From Microcoleus sp. Aus8_D2 (lineage in GTDB: Bacteria; Cyanobacteriota; Cyanobacteriia; Cyanobacteriales; Microcoleaceae): DNA of 41,768 nucleotides. The notes beneath the pieces were generated by a model that was not told where the DNA came from, searched no databases, and was given only the letters and a program-made list of their open reading frames with translations. This document shows, piece after piece, positions 24 through 11,360 of the stretch. The position numbers and the translations under genes are program-made. Location: the NCBI RefSeq assembly GCF_036702665.1, contig NZ_JAUBUN010000017.1, positions 1 through 41,768 on the forward strand, given 5' to 3'. Position 1 is the first letter of the stretch; the number at the start of each line of letters is the position of its first letter.

Positions 24-300
24 CAAGTTTGTCGGGTTAGGTAAAGTTAATATGCTAATGAGTCCTTTGGGTAGGGGGACTCATTTTTATGGTTTATCCC
101 CTTATTTAAGGGGGTAAAATTAAAGTACAAGATACTAAGCTAGATTTTAGAGGGTGTGGTGTCTAGATTATGCCTAGAAAGTGACAAGCCACAATTAAGC
201 AAACTCAACAACTAGGATGACGTAAATAGGTTAAATGACTAGAATGTATCTAGAAATCAAGGATAGGATGGCTGAAAGCATTGGTAAATGGTTAATTTAC
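24..300 (+). repeat. Repeat-family copy A (~275 bp). It contains the perfect 16-bp palindrome CCCCTTATTTAAGGGG and the CTAGATAC(A/T)TTCTAG motif. It is the inverted partner of 2881-3370.
   Basis: By eye, 150-290 is the reverse complement of 2890-3030 with about 3 mismatches in 150 bp. 28-127 is the reverse complement of 3275-3370. The copy overlaps the last codons of ppk. Confidence 0.8.
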
Positions 301-2472
301 CATATCCATCAAAATTTGCTGAGAGCTCACCTCCGGGTTATTAGCAGGCGGGCGTCGCTGAGAGTAGTGTCCCCCAGACTGCAAATCCCAAGCTTGGCGG
401 TTGTCCGCCAACATCACACCCAAAATTTCTTGCAACTCCATCACTATAGTCGGATCTTCCACTTGCACGATCGCCTCAACCCGCCTTGTGAGATTGCGCT
501 GCATCCAGTCAGCAGAACCAATATACACCTCTTCGTTGCCGCCGTTGAAAAAATAAAACATCCGAGAATGCTCTAAAAAGCGGCCGATAATACTGATAAC
601 TTTGATATTTTCGCTAACACCCTCAACGCCCGGACGCAAACAACAAATCCCCCGGATAATCAAATCAATTTTAACACCCGCTTGGGAAGCTTCGTACAAA
701 GCAACAATAATTTGAGGGTCAACTAAAGCATTCATTTTAGCGACAATCCGGCCGCAGCTACCGGTGCCGCCTTCGGCCTGTAAGCGGCAGAAGTCGGCTT
801 CGCGGCGGATTAATGCTAAAAAACGCTCGCGCATATTGACAGGCGCCACCAACAATTTACGATAAGATAGCTGTCGGGAATAACCGGTTAAATAATTAAA
901 CAAGTCCGTCAAATCCGCACCCAAATCTTCGCGACAACTCAACAAACCCACATCCGTATACAGTCCAGCAGTTTTCGGGTTGTAATTTCCCGTGCCGATG
1001 TGGACGTAGCGGCGAATGCAACTGTCCTCGCGCCGGACTACCATCACCACCTTGGTGTGGGTTTTGAGTCCCACCAAACCGTAGACAACGTGCACGCCCG
1101 CTTGTTCTAACTTGCGCGCCCAATTAATGTTATTTTCTTCGTCAAACCGGGCTTTGAGCTCGACTAAAACGGCTACTTGCTTGCCGTTTTCCGCAGCTTG
1201 AATTAAAGAACTGACGATCGGCGAATCACCAGAAGTGCGGTATAAAGTCATCTTAATCGCTAACACCGAGCGATCGTTCGCCGCCTCAGTAATAAACCGC
1301 TGGACAGTGGCTGCAAACGAGTGATAGGGATGGTGCAGCATCAAATCGCCCTGGCGGATGGCCGTGAAAATATCCTCACCCTCCTCAACATCCAACATCG
1401 ATTTACCTACCATCCTGGGCGGTTCCGAGTTCCGCAAGCGGGGCGGCACCACCGGAGTCCAAGGCGGATCTTTGAGTTCCGGTACCGGCAACCCGACAAA
1501 AGACATCAAATCCTTGAGGCCTAGCAGCCCCTCCACGGCGTAAACATCCTGCTCGCCGAGATCCAACTCGTCCATCAACATATCTCGCAGTGCAGGCGGC
1601 ATAATCGCTGGAATTTCCAGGCGCACCGCAGAACCTGTAAATCGGCGTTTGCGGAGTTCCTGTTCAATGGCCAGCAGCAAATCATCTGCCTCATCTTCCT
1701 CCACAGTCAAATCGGAATTGCGAGTAATCCGAAACGGGTGATATTCCTGAATGTCCATCCCCGGAAACAAAGCCTCTAAATTGTGGGCGATTACCTGTTC
1801 GAGAGGTACCCCCGTCCACACAGGAGATTTGCCCCTCTGCTGCCACTGCAAGTCCTCCGGTAAGGGCAAAAATCTGGGCAGAACCTGCGGTACTTTGACG
1901 CGCGCAAATAGTTCTTCGCGGGTGTCGGGGTCTCTGACAACTACTGCTAAATTAAGACTGAGATTGGATAGAAATGGGAAGGGATGACTGGGGTCAACTG
2001 CTAGGGGTGTGAGCACAGGAAATACTTGTTCTTTGAAGTAGCGATGCAAGTAATTTCGCTGTTCTTGATTGAGGTCAATGTAGTCGAGAATGTGGATGCC
2101 GTTTGCTGCTAATTTGGGCCGCAGAGTTTGCTCAAAATACGAGTGTTGCTGAGTAACCATCGGCAAAAGCCGCTTGTTGATGGCATCTAGCTGTTCTTGG
2201 GGCGTGCGGCCGTCGGAGGTCAATTTACTGACTTTTGCTTCTACTTGCTGTTTGAGTGCGGCTACTCGCACCATGAAGTATTCGTCTAAGTTTGAGCTAA
2301 AAATAGCGAGAAATTTGAGTCTTTCTAGGAGGGGCGTGCGGGGGTCTAGGGCTTCGTGGAGCACGCGGTTGTTGAATTCTAGCCAGCTTTGTTCTCGGTT
2401 GAAGTAGTATTGCGGGTCGCTGAGGTTGATTTCGGTGTAGGTTTTGGCTGGGGTCTTTTTTTGCTTGGACAT
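292..2472 (-). CDS. ppk: Polyphosphate kinase 1 (PPK1)
   Basis: 726-aa ORF whose N-terminus (YFNREQSWLEFNNRVLHEA...RLKFLAIFSSNLDEYFMVRV) and overall length are typical of the PPK1 family. Confidence 0.93.
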   Translation of the reverse strand: MSKQKKTPAKTYTEINLSDPQYYFNREQSWLEFNNRVLHEALDPRTPLLERLKFLAIFSSNLDEYFMVRVAALKQQVEAKVSKLTSDGRTPQEQLDAINKRLLPMVTQQHSYFEQTLRPKLAANGIHILDYIDLNQEQRNYLHRYFKEQVFPVLTPLAVDPSHPFPFLSNLSLNLAVVVRDPDTREELFARVKVPQVLPRFLPLPEDLQWQQRGKSPVWTGVPLEQVIAHNLEALFPGMDIQEYHPFRITRNSDLTVEEDEADDLLLAIEQELRKRRFTGSAVRLEIPAIMPPALRDMLMDELDLGEQDVYAVEGLLGLKDLMSFVGLPVPELKDPPWTPVVPPRLRNSEPPRMVGKSMLDVEEGEDIFTAIRQGDLMLHHPYHSFAATVQRFITEAANDRSVLAIKMTLYRTSGDSPIVSSLIQAAENGKQVAVLVELKARFDEENNINWARKLEQAGVHVVYGLVGLKTHTKVVMVVRREDSCIRRYVHIGTGNYNPKTAGLYTDVGLLSCREDLGADLTDLFNYLTGYSRQLSYRKLLVAPVNMRERFLALIRREADFCRLQAEGGTGSCGRIVAKMNALVDPQIIVALYEASQAGVKIDLIIRGICCLRPGVEGVSENIKVISIIGRFLEHSRMFYFFNGGNEEVYIGSADWMQRNLTRRVEAIVQVEDPTIVMELQEILGVMLADNRQAWDLQSGGHYSQRRPPANNPEVSSQQILMDMVN

Positions 2473-2622
2473 GGTTTGCGGGAGTCTTGGGGAGGCTCGA
2501 TTGTATCTTTACCATTAGTATTGCAGTAGTATTGCGGTAGTGGGGCGGTTGCGGGCGATTGAAATCGCGCCGACACAGACAAAACCCGAGCTCAGAGGGG
2601 TTGAAGAAATTAAAACTTAACT

Positions 2623-2727
2623 GGTTCCAAGGCAGAGCCTTGGAACCCATATTCAGAGGCTCTGCCTCGGCTGGTAAAATGGAGGCAGAGCCTCCCGGAT
2701 CTGCGTTACCAGGCAGAGCCTGGTAAC
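2623..2727. repeat. Array of four short hairpins. All share the apex GGC-AGA-GCC but have different, compensating stem extensions (ccaaggc/gccttgg, gaggc/gcctc, ggaggc/gcctcc, ccaggc/gcctgg).
   Basis: Read directly in 2623-2647, 2654-2668, 2680-2696 and 2706-2727. Located in the ppk upstream region. Confidence 0.7.
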
Positions 2728-2880
2728 GAGTATAAACTCTTGTGGGGTGGGCTTCTAGCCCGCCCCAAAGGCATAACATCATATCACGCACCAATCCCCG
2801 CAATCCAATCCTGCACCGCCTCCAACAAATCCTCTGCATCCACCGCAAAACCTGTTAACGGCAATTCCAGCGGTGTGGCG

Positions 2881-3370
2881 CTAATCCAGATTAGTTACCA
2901 TTTACCAATGCTTTCAGCCATCCTATCCTTGATTTCTAGATACTTTCTAGTCATTTAACCTATTTACGTTATCCTAGTTGTTGAGATTGCTTAATTGTGG
3001 CTTGTCACTTTCTAGGCATAATCTAGACACCACACCCTCTAAAATCTAGCTTAGTATCTTGCACTTTAACTTTAACCCCTTAAATAAGGGGATAAATCAT
3101 AAACACTCCCAAAACCCCCATTTATAAAAAATTAAAATGACGTTTTGGGGTGAAAAACCCGGTTTTGATTTTAGGCCATAACACAAAGTACAAATATCGC
3201 TATGCTTGGCAGACTCTAGAGTAGTGATTTTCGACTTGGTGAGAGTAAAAATATGTAGGATAATTGATAATCTATTATTTAACTTTAACCCCTTAAATAA
3301 GGGGATAAACAATAAAAATGAGTCCCCCTACCCAAAGGACTCATTAGCATATTAACTTTACCTAACCTGA
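2881..3370 (-). repeat. Repeat-family copy B, inverted relative to copy A. It is interrupted by about 185 bp (3096-3277), and the segment TTTATCCCCTTATTTAAGGGGTTAAAGTT is duplicated on both sides of the interruption.
   Basis: 2881-3095 aligns to the reverse complement of 95-300 at about 98% identity. 3278-3370 aligns to the reverse complement of 28-127. The palindrome CCCCTTAAATAAGGGG occurs at 3068-3083 and 3287-3302. Confidence 0.75.
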
Positions 3371-3375
3371 CAAAC

Positions 3376-3606
3376 TTACTCTTTTCTAGAGATTTGTTGC
3401 CAGTGGCGAGGCATTGGTAAATCCCAGTCTAAAGTAATTTCATCTCCTATTTCCCTACCCAAAAAGAAGGGACTAAGCACTTTGTTGGCGTGAGCTTGCC
3501 ACAAAGAAAGTTGGCTACTGTCAATGTCTTCTTGCCACACAGAAGGTTCGTTACCGCCGGGTAAAAGTATCCACCTAATATACAAGTCAAGTCCTAAGTT
3601 GGTCAA
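3376..3606 (-). CDS. Hypothetical protein. Possibly the 3' continuation of 3616-4221 after a frameshift.
   Basis: 76-aa ORF immediately downstream on the same strand. Confidence 0.3.
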   Translation of the reverse strand: MTNLGLDLYIRWILLPGGNEPSVWQEDIDSSQLSLWQAHANKVLSPFFLGREIGDEITLDWDLPMPRHWQQISRKE

Positions 3607-3615
3607 GGTAGTTAC

Positions 3616-4221
3616 CTATCGCTTTCTGTGTCCTGCAATTGGACACCTGCTACGGGTATAAACAGGTTCCCAAGAAACTTTTAAGTTTTGAGATTTGCCT
3701 ACATAAATAACTTTTGGTTCTGTTTTGCTTACCATCACAAAGAACAAACCACGAGAAGGAGGTAAAAAATGGAGTGAAGAAAGAGGCAATATCGGTAACT
3801 GTAAAATACTTTGTGGGGTGATGTCAGTTACCATGTTTATTTGAGCTTTGTCGGAATTCCCTAAGTATTCCTCCATTACAGTCGCTTTTTTAAGAGCGAT
3901 ATGTGGACTCTCATTCGGTAACTTCGCTTTTCGCTCTGTTCGCTCTATCGATTCAGGAGGAGGAAACTCACCCTCATAATGCACTAGACGTTTCCATGTT
4001 TCAGTCATGGTTACATTGCCGAAACATTTTGCATAGGAATCTATATTTAGTTTCTTAGCAAGCTGTTTGTAGAACTCGAAACTCCCAGCACCCAAGTTAC
4101 CAAAAACAAAACCTGAGTTGAAACCTAGGCTTTTACGTGCCGAACAGTATTCTTCTCGCTCTTCTAACGCGGACGTTACGATTTGCGATCGCAAATCACT
4201 TGATAACGGTAAATCTGTCAT
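3616..4221 (-). CDS. Hypothetical protein (island cargo). The C-terminal stretch GLFFVMVSKTEPKVIYVGKSQNLK is faintly GIY-YIG-like.
   Basis: 201-aa ORF with no recognisable family. The ORF 3376-3606 follows after a 9-bp gap in another frame, so this may be a frameshifted single gene. Confidence 0.4.
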   Translation of the reverse strand: MTDLPLSSDLRSQIVTSALEEREEYCSARKSLGFNSGFVFGNLGAGSFEFYKQLAKKLNIDSYAKCFGNVTMTETWKRLVHYEGEFPPPESIERTERKAKLPNESPHIALKKATVMEEYLGNSDKAQINMVTDITPQSILQLPILPLSSLHFLPPSRGLFFVMVSKTEPKVIYVGKSQNLKVSWEPVYTRSRCPIAGHRKR

Positions 4222-4676
4222 AGTTATTCTGTTCCAATCGTTGGTTGTAAACGTTTGGGGAAGTCGTGGTTAGTGTGGTTCGTCAAAACCGCATTACCGC
4301 GCATCAATCTTCCTTAGTTACTCACGATTGCAGGTTTGCAGCCGCTTGTCAACGGTATAACCGTTAAGTTCTGTAAAGTTTTGTTACGGGTAATGGTACA
4401 GAAAAAATAAAAGTTCGTTATATAACCTTTGTTTGTAGCGTAAGTCGCTAATATGGTTTATTTATTATAGCTTACTTAATTAGACTAAAAGGTACAAAAA
4501 AGTTGAATAGGAGGGTTTTTTATTGGCTATTTTTATATTTACTATTTACACCCTGTTTTAGTCCATTTTAACGCTATACTGATTTTGTAAACCTATATGG
4601 TTTTGAAATATTTTGACATATACTGAAAACAGCCAGCGATTTAAGCGCAAAGTATTCTGAACAAGGAAGTGGCAGA

Positions 4677-4916
4677 ATGATTGTGAATTACGAGAATACA
4701 CCCGTCTCTATGCCCCATTATTGGGAACACATAGTAACATCTCATTACCTGACAAAGAATAGGTACGTCCCTGCTTATAAGCTAGAAGCGCTTAAGGATG
4801 GCGATAGCATAATTGATAGATGCCGTCGGAGATGGTGGAAAATTAAATTAGACGAACACAACCAACATTTGAAACCACAAGGTGCTATTATCCGTTTTGT
4901 TTACTGTAACGGCTAA
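4677..4916 (+). CDS. Hypothetical small protein (79 aa) in the AT-rich island
   Basis: Isolated ORF in AT-rich DNA with no recognisable motif. Confidence 0.25.
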   Translation: MIVNYENTPVSMPHYWEHIVTSHYLTKNRYVPAYKLEALKDGDSIIDRCRRRWWKIKLDEHNQHLKPQGAIIRFVYCNG

Positions 4917-5575
4917 AGCACTATTAAACCGTAAATCAAAGTAGGTCAATCTCAGTTGGTCTACTTTTTTGTGGGTAAATAAAGCGGATTTAGTAGTACA
5001 GGATTACGGAACTTTATAGGTTGGTAACATCGTTGTCAACATTAAACAGTGTTATTTAAGTGATGTACATATGTAAGATTTGTAAACATTTACGAGTATA
5101 GGGGAGTACAATAGATAAGTTTTATTAATATTAAAATTAGAGTAATTGTAAATCAATGTAACGGAAATATTGCATTAGAACTAACTAACTAGATAAAAAA
5201 CATGAACAGAGAGATACAAAAATAGTGGGTAGAAAGAGGTAGTAAAGAAAAATAAATCCCCCCCAGGGTTTTGTACCTTTCAAGCCTTAAAGGAGGCAAA
5301 AATGGCTGTTTCTGTGGCGATTAAGAGCATGAGTGATTATAAATTGCAAAAAATGAAGGGAAAGGATAGCGACTCACTTCATTAATAAAACTTATCTATT
5401 TAAATATAGGGGGGTTCAGTTTTGATTAGTAGCTGTAATATTTTTATTATTTATCCCCCCATATTGGGGGGGATAAAGTTATATATTTACTGATGATATG
5501 ACCTACAGGTTCACTCAGTAAGTAGGCACAAAAAAACCTACCGGGTTAGGGTAGGTAGGTATGTACTGGGTAGGG

Positions 5576-7027
5576 TTAGACTACTACTAACTCTGTTGAC
5601 TCATTAATACCTAAGTAATGTCTTAGAATCACATCCACACTGTTGCCACAACTGCTAGCTATGCGTAACAGAGCGTTGTTATTGTGGCTATTAGCTTGCG
5701 CGGTTAGCGTGATGTAAGTGTGACGGCAATGATAGGACGCTAAATAACCACTAATTTTGCCTTCACGAGCCAATTGTGAGACTATACCGGGATAGAAATA
5801 CGTTACTTCTTCCCCTGATTTGAGAGTTTGTTTTTTTACATAATCACGCCAAACTCTCCCTAGGGAAGAAGTATCTATATACCCCCCATTGGCATTTGAA
5901 AAAATTAAACCCTCTGTTTTGTCGCCTTTAATTTCTAACAACAAAGCTTTTAAACGTTCAAAATCTTCAAAATAAAACAAGCGGCTCTCGCCCGTCTTAG
6001 TGTTTTTAACCTTGCGAGTAGAAGCACCTAGTGACTTACTAATTTTGATAACATGACGTTCAAAATTAACGTCACGCCAAGTTAGTGCATAAACTTCGCT
6101 AGGGCGACAACCCGTTAAAAACAGAAATTCGATAAACGGTGCAAACATGATAGAACCTTTGCGAGTTCTATTGCTATCAGACTCATAAAACGCTTTGATG
6201 ATGATATCACGTTCATCCTTAGTAAAGGCACGCTTATCATTCTCTAAAGCTTTCTCATCCTCTACTTCATGCCATTCTACAATCTCACCATTAACTACTT
6301 TGTCAGCATACTTTTGCTGTGTTGTGACAACAGGTACGCTAAATTTGTTAGTAGCAAAAGGATTGTTAGTAGCCGAATTAACGATTAATCCTTTTGATTG
6401 GGCATACTCAAAGGCTTGATTTAACGCTCTCAAACTCAAAGTTTTGAGTTTGGATGTTATTGAATCAAGCGCGGTTTCAATACCCTGTTTGTCATTTAAA
6501 TGAACGGTAGCTAGCGGGTTGTCAGATAGTGTCAACTGACTACCCTTGTTTTGAAAAATTTTACCGTAAATTATGTTGCCATATTTTTTGTACGTTGTGT
6601 CAAAAGTAGTTTCTTCTATGGTTGTTTTTTTCCACAATAGATATGCTTCCCACATCGCACCTACGGTTATCTCAGGTACGGTTTGAGTCGTACCCGGCAA
6701 TTGAAGTACATCAGCTAACTTAGCATATTTGCCCCCTCCTAAGCCATATTTAGCAAGGGTAGGGTCAAACAGCTTTTCCCACTCTGGATGGTCTAAATCA
6801 GCCTCCATCGCAGCAGCAATTTGGCTAGCCCGCTTCCAATCCTCTGGGGTATCAGAGTAGCCGTATTTGCCTATTCCTAAGCACTTAGGCTTACCCTTGA
6901 GTGATTTACCGTCTAGTAGCTCCCACAGGGTGCTATGGCGCTTGGGGAAGCGCAAGGCGAGTGACCCTTTGTCAGAGTAAACAGATACATCACAAGCGGA
7001 CTGTGCCTTTTGAGATTGAGCTTTCAT
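5576..7027 (-). CDS. Tyrosine recombinase / phage-type integrase
   Basis: C-terminal catalytic signatures are present: LTGCRPSEV (Arg), HCRHTYITL (H-x-R-H box) and VILRHYLGI (Tyr). A ~480-aa protein with a long N-terminal arm/core-binding region. Confidence 0.88.
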   Translation of the reverse strand: MKAQSQKAQSACDVSVYSDKGSLALRFPKRHSTLWELLDGKSLKGKPKCLGIGKYGYSDTPEDWKRASQIAAAMEADLDHPEWEKLFDPTLAKYGLGGGKYAKLADVLQLPGTTQTVPEITVGAMWEAYLLWKKTTIEETTFDTTYKKYGNIIYGKIFQNKGSQLTLSDNPLATVHLNDKQGIETALDSITSKLKTLSLRALNQAFEYAQSKGLIVNSATNNPFATNKFSVPVVTTQQKYADKVVNGEIVEWHEVEDEKALENDKRAFTKDERDIIIKAFYESDSNRTRKGSIMFAPFIEFLFLTGCRPSEVYALTWRDVNFERHVIKISKSLGASTRKVKNTKTGESRLFYFEDFERLKALLLEIKGDKTEGLIFSNANGGYIDTSSLGRVWRDYVKKQTLKSGEEVTYFYPGIVSQLAREGKISGYLASYHCRHTYITLTAQANSHNNNALLRIASSCGNSVDVILRHYLGINESTELVVV

Positions 7028-7059
7028 GGTAGGTTCTCTCTGTGACTATTGGTTTGTCA

Positions 7060-7160
7060 AGGTTCTGGGTTTCTAGATACTTTCTAGATAATGACTAGAA
7101 TGTGCCTGGTATTTAACCCCTTATTTAAGGGGTTAAACCATAAAATCAGTATAACATGGT
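7060..7160 (-). repeat. Repeat-family copy C. It is abbreviated, in the same orientation as copy B, and lies immediately 3' of the integrase.
   Basis: TTTCTAGATACTTTCTAG...ATGACTAGAATGT...AACCCCTTATTTAAGGGGTTAAACCATAAAA matches the B and A motifs. Confidence 0.65.
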
Positions 7161-7170
7161 TTTCGCCTGC

Positions 7171-10100
7171 TTAATCGCTAATCCAGGCGATATGAATACC
7201 CATGTGAGAGTCGGCGAGTTTGCGGGTGAAAGACGAAAGCGCATTTTCGCACGGGCACGAGTGCAAGATTAAGGCGATGTGCGGTTTTTGCAGCCGGTGT
7301 TTGAGTTGGGGGATTAATCGCTTGAATTCCGGGGCGTTGCGGATGGCGGGGATGTCTGTATCTGCGGGGAAGATTGTTTGATATAGTTGGGTACAGAGTT
7401 CTTGGGCGATCGGGCTTATATCGGTTTCGCCTTCTAACGCGCGAATGTTGAGGGGTACGGGGAAGGTTTTATCTGTGGGTTTGAGTTGTTTTAGGAGTGT
7501 GGGGATATCTGGATTTTGTGGGTGGTTGTCCGGTATTGGGGAATTGGTGGGTTGAGTGTGCCATGCTTGATAAAATTCTGGGTAAGTCTTGCTTTGGGCA
7601 CAGTCAGAGATGACGAGGCAGCACTTGTGATAAAGAGTAAAGTCGTTTTTGTAGATTTCGGAAGTTAGGCAATCTTTCAAACCAGAGACTGCGATCGCGA
7701 AGTGTTTATCTTTCATGATTTCACCTAAGCTATCTGCCGCTATACTACGGATATGTCTATCACCTGAATTGCTGATTAACTCGACTAAAGCGGCGATCGC
7801 ATCCGGGTTGTTTTTGCATATTTGCCCTAGGCTTACAGTCGCTCTCCTCCGGGTATTTTTATCCTGAAAAGTACCGATTAACTCGACTAAAGCTGAGAGC
7901 GCAACTGAGTTATCTTTTTCGATTTTTCCTAAGATATTTAGGGCATTTCTCCAGGTATTGTCATCCTCAGAAGTACCAATAAGCTCGTCGCAATTATCTA
8001 AATTTGCGAGTATCAGAGAGTTGTTTGTTACTGATTTTGACAAGCTATATGCCAATTTAATCATCGTATTGTCATCTTCAGAAGTAGCACTCAGTTCATC
8101 AAAATTTACAAGTATAACTAAGTTATTTATGTCAATTTTTCCTAAGCTATTTGCCGCTGTCATCCGGGTATTTTGTTCGCCTGAATTGCGAATTAACTTG
8201 ACTAACCCGGAGATTGCAACTGGGTTATCTTCACCTATTTCTCCTAAGCTTTTTGCCGCTTGCTTCCAAGTATCTTCATCCTGAGAACTACGGATTAACT
8301 CGACTAAAGCTTCGATCGCAACAGGGTTAGATTTGCCTATTGTTCCTAAGCTAGCTGCCGCCTCCCTCCGGGTATTTTCATCCTGAGAATTACGGATTAA
8401 CTCGACGAAAGCTTCGATCGCAACTGGATTATCTTTGCTTATTTCCCCTAATATATTTGCCGCTATCCACCGGGTTTTTTCATTACCTGAATTGCGGATT
8501 GACTCAACTAAAGCTACGATCGCCCTTTTCCGATCCGTCTCCTTCAGTATATCCCATGAACTCTCTGCCAGTGGAGCGATAAATGTTTGCCACTCCTGCT
8601 TTTCCTCATCAAAATAACCAAACCCCCACTTAATAACCTGCGACACAATCTCATCAGCAAAACTGCAATCCTTAAACTCAGCAATCCCCGCAGCCGCGAG
8701 AAAATATGCCCGATCTCCATAAAATTTACCACACCCATCCTCAAACTCAACCAACGCCTTAATAAACGCTTCCTTCTCCTCCTTCCCAACCTCCTCACGG
8801 CCCAACCACAGCAAAATAACCTCCTTCCACTGCTTCTCAAAAATCCGATATCGAGCATCAGGATGCTGCGGATTCCCAGGAAAATGATTCAAGAAAAAAT
8901 GCCAATCCTCAGCCGCCAACGCCGCAAAATATTCCTGAAAAGTCGGATGATAAAAAGCATAAATCCCTTCCGCCGTCTCCGCATCCCTCGCCACCAAATT
9001 CAGCCAACCCAAGCGGCAAGCTATCTCAAACTGCGATGCACCCATCACCCGATATCCCACACTTTCTCGTAACTGAAACCGATCCGTTTCATTTAACATC
9101 CCAGCCAGAGCCAATTTCCCCAAAGCCGCATTCAAATCCTGCTGCTGACTCCAATTCAGGCGCGGTTCCTTCCACTGATACAAAGCAGTCACAAACCGCC
9201 GATAAAGCTTAGCCTTAGTATCCGGCAAATCCCCATCCAACGACTGCCAAGTACCGCACAGCAGCGAACATCTCAGCGGATTTTTTACTAAGTCTTGAAT
9301 TCGCTCTTTCCCCGATGCTGCTAATGCTTCCCGTAGCTGTTGGGAAAGCACCCCCCCAGCCCCCCTTGCTAAGGGGGGAGTAAGAGTTTCTTCTGTATTT
9401 TGGGTTGGGATGGAGGGAGGAAGAACCCCCCCAGCCCCCCTTGCTAAGGGGGGAGTAAGAGTGTTCCCTTCTCCTGTCGCCTGCGTTGATAAACCACGAG
9501 CAAAAGTATCCCCTTCTTCTCTTGTCCCCCCCCTTAGCAAGGGGGGGTTAGGGGGGGTTCCAAACCACTTATCGATAAACATTTCCACCTGTTCGGGATA
9601 GGAAAACTCCAGAGTACGATAAGTATCAAAAGTATCCAAGGCAGAGCCGATCGCATCCCAAACATTCTGCCGACAACTTAGCACAATCCGCGCCCTTTGA
9701 ACACAGCCGCCCGTTCTAACTTGTCGCTGAATTTCCGCCAAAGGATTCCCATCACCCGCAGCCATCTCATCCGCGCCATCCAACACCAACCAAACCCGCT
9801 CAGCATTAAACTGTGCTAAAAAATCATCTTTAATATCCGCCGTCGCCTCAGCTTTCCCAACCCTCTTAATTGCCGCCAGCAACCAAGTATCAAATAAATA
9901 CGATTCTAAATCTTTCCCCTGCAAATCCGCCAAAGCAACCCAAATAACAATCGCCTCGGAAATTTCCTCCGCCACCCAATTAGCAATCTGCCGCAACAGC
10001 GTAGTTTTCCCCGCCCCCGGTTCCCCAATAATTGCTAACCGCTTCCCATTGCTCTTCGGGCTACTTCCTCCCCGCAAAACTTGCTCCAGAAACTCCTTAT

Positions 10101-10992
10101 TTTCAAAGGTTTGAGTTACTTCTTTTTCCCGGTACAAATCCGAACCTTCCTCCGCCGCCAAATCCTCCCGGCGCTGAGTCACTTTGTGCCGTTCAACCAA
10201 TCCCAGCGGCACATAAACATCATCAATTTGACGATCGCCAAAAGTTAGCTGATTGCTACTGAGCCGCTGCTGTTCTTTCTCGTCTAAAATCTGCTGACAA
10301 ATAGCCCGCCAGTCAATCGGTTGGTAAACAATGCGGCTCTTTTGCACAATCTCCTCAAGCCAAGCATACATCTCTTGGGTTGTGGTATCAATTCGCGTCA
10401 AAGTTTGCCCGGTGAATATCTGAAAAACCTTTTCATTTTCCTTGATTTCTTGAGCAAAGTATGCAGCCACCAAGGCAAACAACTCTTGCTCTAACTTCGT
10501 TTTGTAATGTGCGACATCGCAATTTTCGAGGGCAACTTCCAGCAATTTTTGCTCAACTGCTGCTACCCGATTCTGCTTTAACTCATCTGTGGCAGTCAGC
10601 AGCAATTCTATCTCATCTAAACCCTCAATCGGAATCCCAGACGGGACTGTTTCTTTATTAACCTGTTCTAAATCTAATTTGAGCTTTTCGAGCTTTCGTT
10701 TCAACCAATCAAAATCGCGCCGCCTGTCTTGCAGCGAATAGCTAAAACTCTCTCGGTTAGCGCTATTTTTCGGATCGATTTCCTGCTTGCATTCTGAGGC
10801 GATTTGCTGCTGAGCTTTCAGGAAAGATGTTTTCAGCGCTTTTTCTAAATCGTGATTGACAATTTTACCGTTTCGCGATATCTTTTTAATGCCTGTCAAA
10901 CAGAGATGTTTTGCTGCATCATTAACTTGAGTTCCTAGTATGCCTTGCCAAGCGACTGTGAAAAGCAAGCCCAAGGTAATCGGATCTGACAT
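7171..10992 (-). CDS. STAND-class NACHT NTPase with C-terminal HEAT/PBS-lyase repeats and an uncharacterised ~300-aa N-terminal domain.
   Basis: Walker A is AIIGEPGAGKTTLL. The NACHT-type Walker B is VWLVLDGADEM. The C-terminus has many tandem HEAT-like repeats (…NPVAIEALVELIRNS.DE.TRR.AA.SLG.IG…). The start is placed at the internal ATG 10992 (MSDPITLG) with GGAG 9 nt upstream. The ORF-track extension to 11130 is encoded by the tandem repeat. Confidence 0.85.
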   Translation of the reverse strand: MSDPITLGLLFTVAWQGILGTQVNDAAKHLCLTGIKKISRNGKIVNHDLEKALKTSFLKAQQQIASECKQEIDPKNSANRESFSYSLQDRRRDFDWLKRKLEKLKLDLEQVNKETVPSGIPIEGLDEIELLLTATDELKQNRVAAVEQKLLEVALENCDVAHYKTKLEQELFALVAAYFAQEIKENEKVFQIFTGQTLTRIDTTTQEMYAWLEEIVQKSRIVYQPIDWRAICQQILDEKEQQRLSSNQLTFGDRQIDDVYVPLGLVERHKVTQRREDLAAEEGSDLYREKEVTQTFENKEFLEQVLRGGSSPKSNGKRLAIIGEPGAGKTTLLRQIANWVAEEISEAIVIWVALADLQGKDLESYLFDTWLLAAIKRVGKAEATADIKDDFLAQFNAERVWLVLDGADEMAAGDGNPLAEIQRQVRTGGCVQRARIVLSCRQNVWDAIGSALDTFDTYRTLEFSYPEQVEMFIDKWFGTPPNPPLLRGGTREEGDTFARGLSTQATGEGNTLTPPLARGAGGVLPPSIPTQNTEETLTPPLARGAGGVLSQQLREALAASGKERIQDLVKNPLRCSLLCGTWQSLDGDLPDTKAKLYRRFVTALYQWKEPRLNWSQQQDLNAALGKLALAGMLNETDRFQLRESVGYRVMGASQFEIACRLGWLNLVARDAETAEGIYAFYHPTFQEYFAALAAEDWHFFLNHFPGNPQHPDARYRIFEKQWKEVILLWLGREEVGKEEKEAFIKALVEFEDGCGKFYGDRAYFLAAAGIAEFKDCSFADEIVSQVIKWGFGYFDEEKQEWQTFIAPLAESSWDILKETDRKRAIVALVESIRNSGNEKTRWIAANILGEISKDNPVAIEAFVELIRNSQDENTRREAAASLGTIGKSNPVAIEALVELIRSSQDEDTWKQAAKSLGEIGEDNPVAISGLVKLIRNSGEQNTRMTAANSLGKIDINNLVILVNFDELSATSEDDNTMIKLAYSLSKSVTNNSLILANLDNCDELIGTSEDDNTWRNALNILGKIEKDNSVALSALVELIGTFQDKNTRRRATVSLGQICKNNPDAIAALVELISNSGDRHIRSIAADSLGEIMKDKHFAIAVSGLKDCLTSEIYKNDFTLYHKCCLVISDCAQSKTYPEFYQAWHTQPTNSPIPDNHPQNPDIPTLLKQLKPTDKTFPVPLNIRALEGETDISPIAQELCTQLYQTIFPADTDIPAIRNAPEFKRLIPQLKHRLQKPHIALILHSCPCENALSSFTRKLADSHMGIHIAWISD
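9348..9560. repeat. Intragenic palindromic repeat insertions in the NACHT gene. CCCCCC(AGCCCCCC)TTGCTAAGGGGGG occurs as two direct copies (9348-9386 and 9425-9462) plus one opposite-orientation copy (CCCCCCCCTTAGCAAGGGGGGG, 9527-9548).
   Basis: Read directly. They are translated in-frame as TPPLARGAGGVL (twice) and PPLLRGG, between the NACHT and HEAT modules. Confidence 0.8.
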
Positions 10993-11031
10993 TTGACGGT
11001 TCTCCTGATGCGCTGCTCGAAGCGGGTTAGT

Positions 11032-11360
11032 TTGATTGTAGGCGATCGACTTTAGTGGCGATCGGGCGAGTTGACAGGTGCGTCGCTTTGAGATTTTCGA
11101 TGTTTGGCTAAGGATTTTCTGTGGCGACACACCCGAATACTTGATTGTAGGCGATCGACTTTATTGGCGATCGGGCGAGTTCACAGGTGCGTCGCTTTGA
11201 GATTTTTCATGTTTGGCTAAGGATTTTTTGTGGCGACACACCCGAATACTTGATTGTAGGCGATCGACTTTATTGGCGATCGGGCGAGTTGACAGGTGCG
11301 GAGCTTTGAGATTTTCGATATTTAGTTAGGGATTCTTCGCAGGCGACACACCCTACGATT
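11032..11360. repeat. Tandem direct repeat of 3 x ~109 bp, each unit containing HIP1-like GGCGATCG motifs. It lies between the HTH regulator gene and the NACHT gene.
   Basis: Units start at 11032, 11141 and 11250 and are >90% identical (TTGATTGTAGGCGATCGACTTTA(G/T)TGGCGATCGGGCGAGTT(G/C)ACAGGTGCG...). Confidence 0.85.

Follow-up and report, generated by a model that had tools for sequence, protein, structure and literature searches.

Four tandem hairpins upstream of ppk in Microcoleus very probably form one copy of a dispersed, RAYT-associated REPIN-like repeat

In Microcoleus sp. Aus8_D2 a compact array of four hairpins is located 151–256 nt upstream of the ATG of ppk, the gene for polyphosphate kinase 1. 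This location raises the question whether the hairpins serve the expression of ppk or whether they stand next to this gene by chance. A preliminary description of the 41,768-nt stretch analyzed here (in the following: the window) had proposed three candidates for the array, namely a structured element of the ppk 5′-UTR, an array of protein-binding sites and a family of small palindromic repeats. The comparisons reported below point to the last of them. Very probably, the segment from 2617 to 2735 is one copy of a non-autonomous REP/REPIN repeat belonging to a RAYT system, and its position beside ppk is incidental. The window as a whole has a G + C-content of 42% and contains 29 HIP1 sites, which, together with the nearest homologues of its ppk protein, is in line with an oscillatorian cyanobacterium.

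Inspection of the sequence recovered all four hairpins where they had been described before (2623–2727), each of them perfect and all with the common apex GGC-AGA-GCC (2623–2728; Table 1). Their extent had been underestimated, with the stems of the two outer hairpins H1 and H4 being longer (11 bp) than previously given. Over the whole array, hairpins comprise 13–25 nt and stems 5–11 bp. The left half of the segment reads TTAACT-GGTTCCAAGGC-AGA-GCCTTGGAACC-catattca-GAGGC-TCT-GCCTC-ggctggtaaaat, and the right half continues after ggctggtaaaat with GGAGGC-AGA-GCCTCC-cggatctg-CGTTACCAGGC-AGA-GCCTGGTAACG-AGTATAA. The 9-mer GGCAGAGCC occurs five times in the window compared to 0.20 expected occurrences, a number which none of 100 shuffles reached; the fifth copy, at position 9640, lies within a NACHT ORF and is not part of a palindrome. 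As single-stranded DNA, 2617–2735 is predicted to fold with −40.6 and −40.4 kcal/mol on the two strands (z = −9.4 and −10.4 respectively), and the predicted RNA fold of 2473–2800 gave z = −6.8 on one strand and −5.5 on the other relative to shuffled sequences. In addition, H3 can alternatively pair with H2 over 13 bp. A CRISPR-like or tandem-repeat reading of the array was rejected because the orientation of the units alternates and the units are palindromic. Two ORFs which extend over the region (2740–2958 on the plus strand and 2297–2848 on the minus strand) were likewise rejected as genes; neither of them matches a Pfam family, and the record annotates no gene there. The GC-rich hairpin that had been noted behind the array at 2744–2768 does exist, but it ends at 2766. 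It lies outside the REPIN and stems from a second family of dispersed palindromes, members of which sometimes directly abut REPIN ends.

Table 1. Position of the hairpin array, its parts and the neighboring features in the window.
Feature	Position	Strand	Description or basis
ppk (polyphosphate kinase 1), neighboring gene outside the element	292..2472	-	Pfam PP_kinase_N, middle, C_1 and C
ppk-proximal block kept in the relatives sharing it	2473..2600	-	alignments A1, A2 and A5
Complete REPIN-like element	2617..2735	.	two double-hairpin REP units, inverted around a 13-nt spacer; boundaries from blastn
H1, outer (B-type) hairpin of the left arm	2623..2647	+	GGTTCCAAGGC-AGA-GCCTTGGAACC, 11-bp stem
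H2, inner (A-type) hairpin of the left arm	2656..2668	-	GAGGC-TCT-GCCTC; loop on the other strand
Central spacer between the inverted units	2669..2680	.	core-to-core distances
H3, inner (A-type) hairpin of the right arm	2681..2695	+	GGAGGC-AGA-GCCTCC
Conserved A-to-B hairpin linker	2696..2703	+	(C)GGATCTG
H4, outer (B-type) hairpin of the right arm	2704..2728	+	CGTTACCAGGC-AGA-GCCTGGTAACG, 11-bp stem
GC-rich hairpin	2744..2766	+	GGGGTGGGC-ttcta-GCCCGCCCC, one T.G wobble
Relic of the former 3′ end of the NACHT/HEAT gene located upstream	2783..2889	-	87–88% identity to L005–L007

A blastn comparison with all loci fetched for this study (L numbers) revealed that the block 2617–2735 recurs at dozens of unrelated loci with 79–88% identity, and the ends of these matches cluster at window positions 2617–2620 and 2731–2735. 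The idea of a family of small palindromic repeats is borne out by this dispersal. The basic unit of the family, about 50 nt in length, consists of a hairpin A (GAGGC-RGA-GCCTC), a 9-nt linker and a hairpin B (CGTTACCAGGC-AGA-GCCTGGTAACG, 11 bp), both of which share the apex GGC-RGA-GCC. Two units of slightly different arm type, inverted around a short spacer, make up the four-hairpin element of about 119 bp. In the consensus, the left arm TTAACT-GGTTCCCAGGC-(TCT/AGA)-GCCTGGGAACC-GATATCCA-GAGGCTCTGCCTC is followed by the spacer and by the right arm GGAGGCAGAGCCTCC-GGATCTG-CGTTACCAGGCAGAGCCTGGTAACG-AGTA, so that the element is a heterodimer of two related arm types. The arms fall into few and discrete classes (GAGGC, GGAGGC, CGTTACCAGGC and GGTTCCCAGGC), of which CGTTACCAGGC, the arm of H4, is the most frequent one. 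The arm of H1 departs from GGTTCCCAGGC/GCCTGGGAACC by a compensated change from a C-G to an A-T pair, which is also present in other copies of the repeat, and the loop of H1 has the opposite orientation to the more frequent TCT form. The distance of 27 nt from H1 to H2 equals the dominant core-to-core spacing of the family, and the core-to-core distance over the central spacer is 26 nt in the window and 26–60 nt in other copies. The linker, as GGATCTG or GGATATG, was also found at L002, L020 and L116 as well as in further REPIN copies. Altogether, the four-hairpin architecture was found at 29 sites including the window, with 21 of them being of the orientation --++ and eight, among them the window, of the orientation +-++ (spacings 27 / 26–60 / 27 nt).

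The repeat is widespread beyond these loci. A search of a species-representative genome collection with the exact 20-mer of H4, CGTTACCAGGCAGAGCCTGG, yielded at least 118 stretches of 8 kb each. They represent about 50 genomes of cyanobacteria, for the most part Microcoleus and Tychonema, with other filamentous cyanobacteria also being among the matches listed; at least 11 of these stretches originate from one single genome. The motif-selected loci (0.93 Mb) contained 407 GGCRGAGCC cores vs about 14 expected, a density which is biased upward by the way these loci were selected. A motif-independent sample of about 150 kb included one or two sites outside RAYT flanks and suggests, as a rough estimate, a copy number of tens to about 100 per genome. 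The window and a further 5.4 kb of the same contig together contain only a single copy of the element. The outer flanks of the repeats read TACT or AACT (AGTA or AGTT on the other strand), and GAGTAG occurs in some copies only. The canonical unpaired 5′ GT[AG]G foot beside the hairpin is absent in the family. This marks the repeat as an atypical REP, not as a non-REP.

The preliminary description had considered the covariation between the four stems as the signature of a selected structure. Indeed, pairing is kept by compensatory changes. Among 138 distinct B-type hairpins, which were chosen by their left arm only, 94.7% of the cells of the B stem are paired, and four of the 11 pairs are changed on both sides (73 cells). 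None of 500 shuffles reached these values, and sliding the partner by 1–3 columns reduced the paired fraction to 26–44%, with 43.5% as the highest value. These compensated changes imply that the stem is maintained. The covariation is therefore real, but it exists among paralogous copies and subtypes of a mobile repeat, and the argument built on it holds only in part: the hairpins are related to each other as paralogs within a single mobile element that has two types of arm, and they are not orthologous positions of one RNA. Most likely, the constraint acts on a DNA hairpin that is recognized by a transposase, and not on an RNA at this locus.

A link between the repeat and such an enzyme is visible in relatives of the strain. 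At the ppk loci of two Microcoleus assemblies, L002 and L003, the motif flanks a gene for a 179-aa protein located about 7.6 kb upstream of ppk, with three units in minus orientation to the left and two to three units in plus orientation to the right of the gene. The unit present there, CGAGGC(A/G)GAGCCTC-TGGATCTG-CGTTACCAGGCAGAGCCTGG(G/T)AACGAGG, has the same make-up as H3, linker and H4 in the window. The 179-aa protein matched the NCBIfam model NF047646 (“REP-associated tyrosine transposase”) with 111 bits at a cut-off of 80 and the IS200 transposase model with 17 bits at a cut-off of 55; it carries the Pfam domain Y1_Tnp, and the Microcoleus protein is named “REP element-mobilizing transposase RayT” in the database. 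Its sole sequence match in the PDB is TnpA-REP of E. coli (4ER8); the motifs HLH and YIHNNP are aligned, albeit at a low overall similarity (28 bits). Across 11 homologues the residues N61, H62 and H64 (NH(L/I)H) as well as Y140, I141, H142, N144 and P145 (YIHxNP) are invariant. At all 16 RAYT loci from Microcoleus genomes and metagenomes (L002, L003, L020, L116, L052 and L132–L142), units flank the gene in minus orientation on the left and plus orientation on the right, with fixed distances of 45/72 and 27/54 nt. The number of units beside RAYT varies among strains (2 to 8 on one side). The context of the gene is kept in several genomes; its neighbors are a formyltransferase and an epimerase gene in one set and an LRR/Roc-COR and an MFS transporter gene in another. 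A tblastn search of the 41.8-kb window yielded no RAYT gene, and the commonest Microcoleus RAYT sequence is listed from 10 places, none of them being assembly GCA_036702645.1. That assembly encodes, on JAUBUO010000016.1, a protein identical to the ppk product of the window.

The same arrangement extends beyond Microcoleus. A RAYT from Kamptonema (66% identity) is flanked by the same order of hairpin A, linker and hairpin B, with the apex GCC-TCA-GGC on one side of the gene, and a RAYT from Brocadiales (61% identity) has the same flanks with the apex CGC-AGA-GCG. When the 600-nt flanks of 80 metagenomic RAYT loci (51–90% identity) were scanned, 52 of these loci exhibited at least two apexes of the type N-GC-RRA-GC-N′, vs 0.8 in shuffled controls. 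Moreover, an identical 20-mer was found in Microcoleus and in a closed Planctomycetota chromosome (OY970367.1). In architecture, extragenic dispersal and linkage to RAYT the system shows the defining features of REP/REPIN–RAYT systems save the GT[AG]G foot, with dispersal and linkage being seen in relatives. As units of this repeat flank RAYT and also occupy many unrelated intergenic sites in relatives, the array is best regarded as an ordinary repeat and not as a regulatory RNA of ppk.

Stop-free stretches of at least 200 codons, which span 73% of the DNA, contained only 10% of the cores (p about 1e-177), and clusters were comparatively rare between divergent long ORFs (7 of 94 vs 95 of 448 spacers; p = 0.0013). 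This depletion means that there is no bias of the repeat to 5′ regions; if anything the tendency is opposite, as has been reported for REPs. The preliminary description had itself named a scatter of many such hairpins with no preference for 5′ regions as evidence against a regulatory role, and this is what was found in the relatives.

The surroundings of ppk are informative about how the array came to lie there. The nearest homologues of the ppk protein are from Microcoleus and Tychonema (92–95% identity). In alignments of relatives at most about 125 nt before the ATG are kept; in blastn, positions 2442–2589 of the window match L143 and L144 with 84% identity. Beyond this block the neighbor differs by lineage (NACHT/HEAT, DUF6930, acetyltransferase, HTH or FBPase). 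The promoter and leader of ppk are probably contained in the conserved block. A terminator-like GGGTTTTGT motif is located at its upstream edge, and the REPIN lies just outside of it. The relic listed in Table 1 matches the final ~107 nt of the NACHT gene of L005–L007 and is parted from its gene by an insertion of about 4.3 kb which includes an integrase. The array thus occupies the former spacer between the NACHT gene and ppk. Readings of the flanks as Pho-box or NtcA-site were dropped, with no convincing match being recognized by eye. With respect to an empty site, the ppk loci of the seven nearest available relatives have different upstream neighbors and offer no orthologous one, and a metagenome scan with the unique flank GGCATAACATCATATCACGC gave 0 matches.

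Against this background, the reading of the array as a structured cis-regulatory RNA in the ppk leader, similar to a riboswitch or an attenuator, appears extremely improbable. Its distance to ppk and the very stable fold on either strand would be in line with such a function. However, no array is present upstream of ppk at L002, L005–L007, L009, L129, L131, L143 and L145, including loci with ppk proteins of 92–95% identity, and GGCAGAGCC was found upstream of ppk in none of the fetched loci of other lineages, while the same 119-nt block occurs at dozens of unrelated loci. The array is furthermore located outside the block of about 125 nt that is kept in front of ppk, and promoter prediction for the ppk strand within 2473–3300 gave no sigma-70-like promoter upstream of the array. 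An Rfam scan, which the preliminary description had suggested as a check, gave no match to a curated RNA family at the gathering score in the whole window; at an E-value threshold the region 2400–3000 only yielded look-alikes of the animal miRNAs mir-3155 and mir-9033, far below the cut-offs. The proposal of a structured ppk 5′-UTR can hence hardly be upheld. One form of the second proposal, a protein-binding array, would be operators to which a dimeric regulator of ppk or of phosphate metabolism binds. A constant core within inverted repeats would be typical of such sites, and the array groups four of these upstream of one gene. This reading is scarcely credible either: the same sites exist at many loci with unrelated neighbors and are absent from other ppk promoters, the constant part corresponds to the loop and apex of the hairpins instead of two half-sites with a fixed spacer, and RAYT is the only protein that is consistently linked to these hairpins.

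Two further explanations concern the origin and the later use of the repeat. A MITE or PATE derived from the ends of an IS200/IS605 element and mobilized by TnpA-IS200, in place of a domesticated RAYT, could account for the hairpins, as subterminal hairpins are also found in IS200/IS605 ends, RAYTs and TnpA-IS200 are homologous and genes for IS605 OrfB/TnpB occur in these genomes (L005). Yet this origin is very unlikely in view of the model scores given above, which place the flanked protein above the cut-off for RAYTs and below that for IS200 transposases, of the conserved chromosomal context of RAYT in several genomes and of the absence of a TnpB gene adjoining it. RAYT is the only gene consistently flanked, and the repeats form arrays on both of its sides and not single defined IS ends. 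It is more conceivable, though still unlikely, that this particular copy has been co-opted as a terminator, as a stabilizer of RNA 3′ ends or as an insulator between the former NACHT unit and ppk, a role which would be compatible with a REPIN origin. On the ppk strand the 11-bp stem of H1 runs into AGTTAAGTTT, and H1 was classed as terminator-like, copies of the family favor spacers downstream of genes and avoid divergent spacers, and E. coli REPs have been described to stabilize mRNA 3′ ends and to cause termination (Quentin et al., 2018, PMC6006769). The T-rich tail behind the minus-strand H1 is weak, though, and the other three hairpins have none; the positional bias could equally reflect purifying selection against insertions in promoter regions, and the end of the upstream gene is by now a relic, with the insertion described above lying between it and the gene.

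Several palindromic repeats with which the Microcoleus family can be compared are known from cyanobacteria and other bacteria. The SDRs, which Elhai and co-workers are said to have described in 2008 for Nostoc and other heterocystous cyanobacteria, reportedly are very small, palindromic and mobile intergenic repeats; they are said to be sometimes nested beside other hairpins and to differ in sequence from the Microcoleus repeat. A link between SDRs and a transposase is not known to have been established. A closer match is offered by the REP/BIME repeats of E. coli. Like these, the Microcoleus repeats are short extragenic palindromes which occur in clusters and in alternating orientation, and the combination of two related types into heterodimers resembles the Y and Z REPs within BIMEs. 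The arrangement around RAYT also parallels that of TnpA-REP, with a single HUH/Y1 transposase gene and inverted REPs on both sides. Unlike E. coli REPs, however, the Microcoleus family lacks the 5′ GTAG foot, and its unit comprises two hairpins with the same apex instead of one. As the GT[AG]G foot is missing, the cleavage rule of the E. coli enzyme cannot simply be carried over. REPINs of Pseudomonas fluorescens (Bertels and Rainey, 2011, PMC3116915) share with the Microcoleus element the organization of two inverted REP units around a short spacer into one repeated unit, the extragenic dispersal and the link to a single-copy RAYT. They differ from it in that each Microcoleus arm holds two hairpins and that the sequence types of the two arms consistently differ from each other; the copy number, roughly estimated here at tens to about 100 per genome, appears to be lower than that of P. 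fluorescens REPINs.

Among cyanobacterial REPs, GTAG-12, GTAG-15 and GTAG-16 from Anabaena, Nostoc and Cyanothece carry an unpaired GTAG tag (Di Nocera et al., 2013, PMC3733652). Similar to the Microcoleus repeats, they often form head-to-head dimers and are associated with RAYT, but the outer flank of the Microcoleus family is AGT[AT]-like, and neither GGAGCC nor GGGAAC is present in the text of that study. The classification of Quentin et al. (2018, PMC6006769) distinguishes a subclass 2.4 (NH[IFV]H, WQ, YIxNNP), which is abundant in Cyanobacteria and has REPs with a GT[AG]G foot, from a subclass 2.6 (NH[LIV]H, WQ, YIH[QN]NP, mean length 179 aa), which is mostly found in Bacteroidetes and has “atypical secondary structures”; these two subclasses correspond to Groups 4 and 5 of the Bertels RAYT scheme. 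By its motif signature alone, the Microcoleus RAYT (NHLH, WQ, YIHNNP, 179 aa) would fit subclass 2.6 and nearly 2.4. A double hairpin without GTAG in Cyanobacteria and Planctomycetota is unlike the descriptions given there for either subclass. Literature searches for GGCAGAGCC together with cyanobacteria, for CAGGCAGAGCCTGG and for GGCGGAGCC together with RAYT yielded no relevant paper.

In analogy to E. coli TnpA-REP and to the Pseudomonas REPINs, RAYT, an HUH/Y1 enzyme, would recognize the hairpins on single-stranded DNA and would cut and rejoin the DNA beside them, by which copies could spread into intergenic DNA. The constant apex may be the feature that RAYT recognizes, with the stems needing only to pair, which would explain the compensatory differences between them. 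The copy beside ppk would then have inserted into a variable spacer behind the 3′ end of the former neighbor gene, presumably with no role in the control of ppk. We can only infer the mobility of the element, as no empty-site allele was found. Taken further, it appears quite possible, although somewhat short of probable, that these systems represent a RAYT clade which extends across Cyanobacteria, Planctomycetota (including Brocadiales) and other phyla, and whose REPs are double hairpins that lack GTAG and share the nearly invariant apex GC-RGA-GC. The adjoining apex pair would switch by lineage (G-C, C-G or A-T), the outer stems would drift with compensation, and the outer 3-nt loop would flip between AGA and TCT.

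Annotators should mask the array as a REPIN and treat it neither as a ppk leader nor as a novel RNA motif. More generally, covariation among adjacent hairpins may stem from paralogous subtypes of a repeat and does not by itself imply a selected RNA. What deserves attention in this family is the double hairpin without a GTAG foot, the apex which recurs across phyla with covarying stems and the flipping of the loop between copies. The inheritance of REP/RAYT systems is generally considered to be vertical. If the apex is the recognition code of RAYT, the family would provide a naturally varied system for studying hairpin recognition by HUH transposases, and the identical 20-mer in Microcoleus and Planctomycetota would then point to a transfer of the REP/RAYT system between phyla. 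Its three features make the family a candidate model for substrate recognition by RAYTs and a useful marker for strain typing in Microcoleus, whose members include cyanobacteria of soil crusts and of toxic benthic mats.

The DNA upstream of ppk, the gene of polyphosphate kinase 1, is a rearrangement hotspot. The gene located upstream of ppk differs in almost every lineage, as seen when the window is compared with loci from other lineages (L009, L143, L129, L131 and L005). The conserved ppk-proximal block (window 2473-2600) includes a small palindrome, GGCGCGATTTCAATCGCC, which L009 and L143 have as well, and a duplicated GCAATACT motif within which a -10 element may be located. In four comparison loci (L005-L007 and L129) the NACHT gene directly adjoins ppk. 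In the window, the 3′ end of this gene is replaced by an insertion carrying a tyrosine recombinase gene, and the original end is displaced, with a relic persisting next to the REPIN, the four-hairpin repeat element upstream of ppk. Two copies of a 39-nt repeat, each with the hairpin AACCCCTTA-aat-TAAGGGG inside, lie near one end of this insertion and a third one at the opposite end. Possible roles are those of att sites or of binding sites for the recombinase; alternatively, the copies may represent another small palindromic repeat.

Coordinates of features in the window and in comparison loci (L numbers; position in the locus after the colon)
Feature	Position	Strand	Remark
Insertion, ~4.3 kb	~2890-7170		Between NACHT/HEAT gene and ppk
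Tyrosine recombinase (integrase) gene	5576-7027	minus	Pfam Phage_integrase; inside the insertion
ORFs of the insertion	3376-3606; 3616-4221		
NACHT/HEAT gene	7171-11130		
Relic of original NACHT gene 3′ end	2783-2889		
39-nt repeats	3065-3103; 3278-3316; 7106-7144		
GC-rich hairpin	2744-2766		cTTGT-GGGGTGGGC-N5-GCCCGCCCC; adjoins four-hairpin array
Further GC-rich hairpins	L005:2505; L012:5708 and 5780; L019:2202; L036:1026		
Further GC-rich hairpins, approximate	L107:~3157; L123:~4082-4115		
End duplications	L002:1745-1790; REPIN ends in L013, L073, L084, L104, L110, L112, L119		Short tandem duplications, 7-9 nt
Apex comparison sites	L146:1420-1490 and 2030-2085; L147:1280-1480 and 2035-2240; L148-L227		
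Further loci with the double-hairpin unit	L046, L048, L051		

The GC-rich hairpin beside the REPIN is a member of another family of dispersed palindromes, distinct from the REPIN; wherever a copy is intact, its T.G wobble is found on the same strand. Hairpins of this type are located approximately 10 nt from a REPIN end in the window and in L019, L104 and L112. As the junction is near-identical in the window and in L112 (CACAAGAGTTT(A/T)..ACTCGTTACC), the sequences suggest either targeting of one element by the other or a preference of both for the same insertion site.

Across REPIN loci with the hairpin orders +-++ (as in the window) and --++, the 3-nt loop of the left-arm outer hairpin (window 2634-2636) occurs in both orientations, reading AGA in eight copies, including that of the window, versus TCT in 21, with the surrounding arm otherwise the same. 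Chloroplast DNA is known for similar small inversions of hairpin loops. Many copies have short tandem duplications of 7-9 nt directly at their outer ends, for example ACTCGTT-ACTCGTT, AACCAGACT (twice) and TTTACCTAG (five times). Such duplications could originate from slippage, or from several rounds of cleavage and rejoining where the element ends.

Apex sequence and lineage of the REP-associated tyrosine transposase (RAYT) covary (L146, L147, L148-L227). Microcoleus and many metagenomic loci have GGC-AGA-GCC; the apex of Brocadiales and of many further metagenomic loci is CGC-AGA-GCG. Other forms are AGC-RGA-GCT and CGC-AAA-GCG, and one Kamptonema flank exhibits GCC-TCA-GGC. The inner GC-RGA-GC is almost constant. 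In Microcoleus sp. MP8IB2.171, tblastn aligns the RAYT gene (L052:429-963) as two segments that overlap but differ in frame. This gene is probably frameshifted and decaying; REP units still flank it.

A closed chromosome of Planctomycetota (OY970367.1; L021, L033, L088) has several copies of the double-hairpin unit of the window, including the identical 20-mer CGTTACCAGGCAGAGCCTGG and a REPIN-like --++ architecture. The unit is also present in MAGs of other Planctomycetota (L023, L034, L127, L113) and of Desulfomonilaceae, Binatia and Pseudomonadota. These sequence matches suggest either a very strong conservation or an inter-phylum transfer of the REP/RAYT system.
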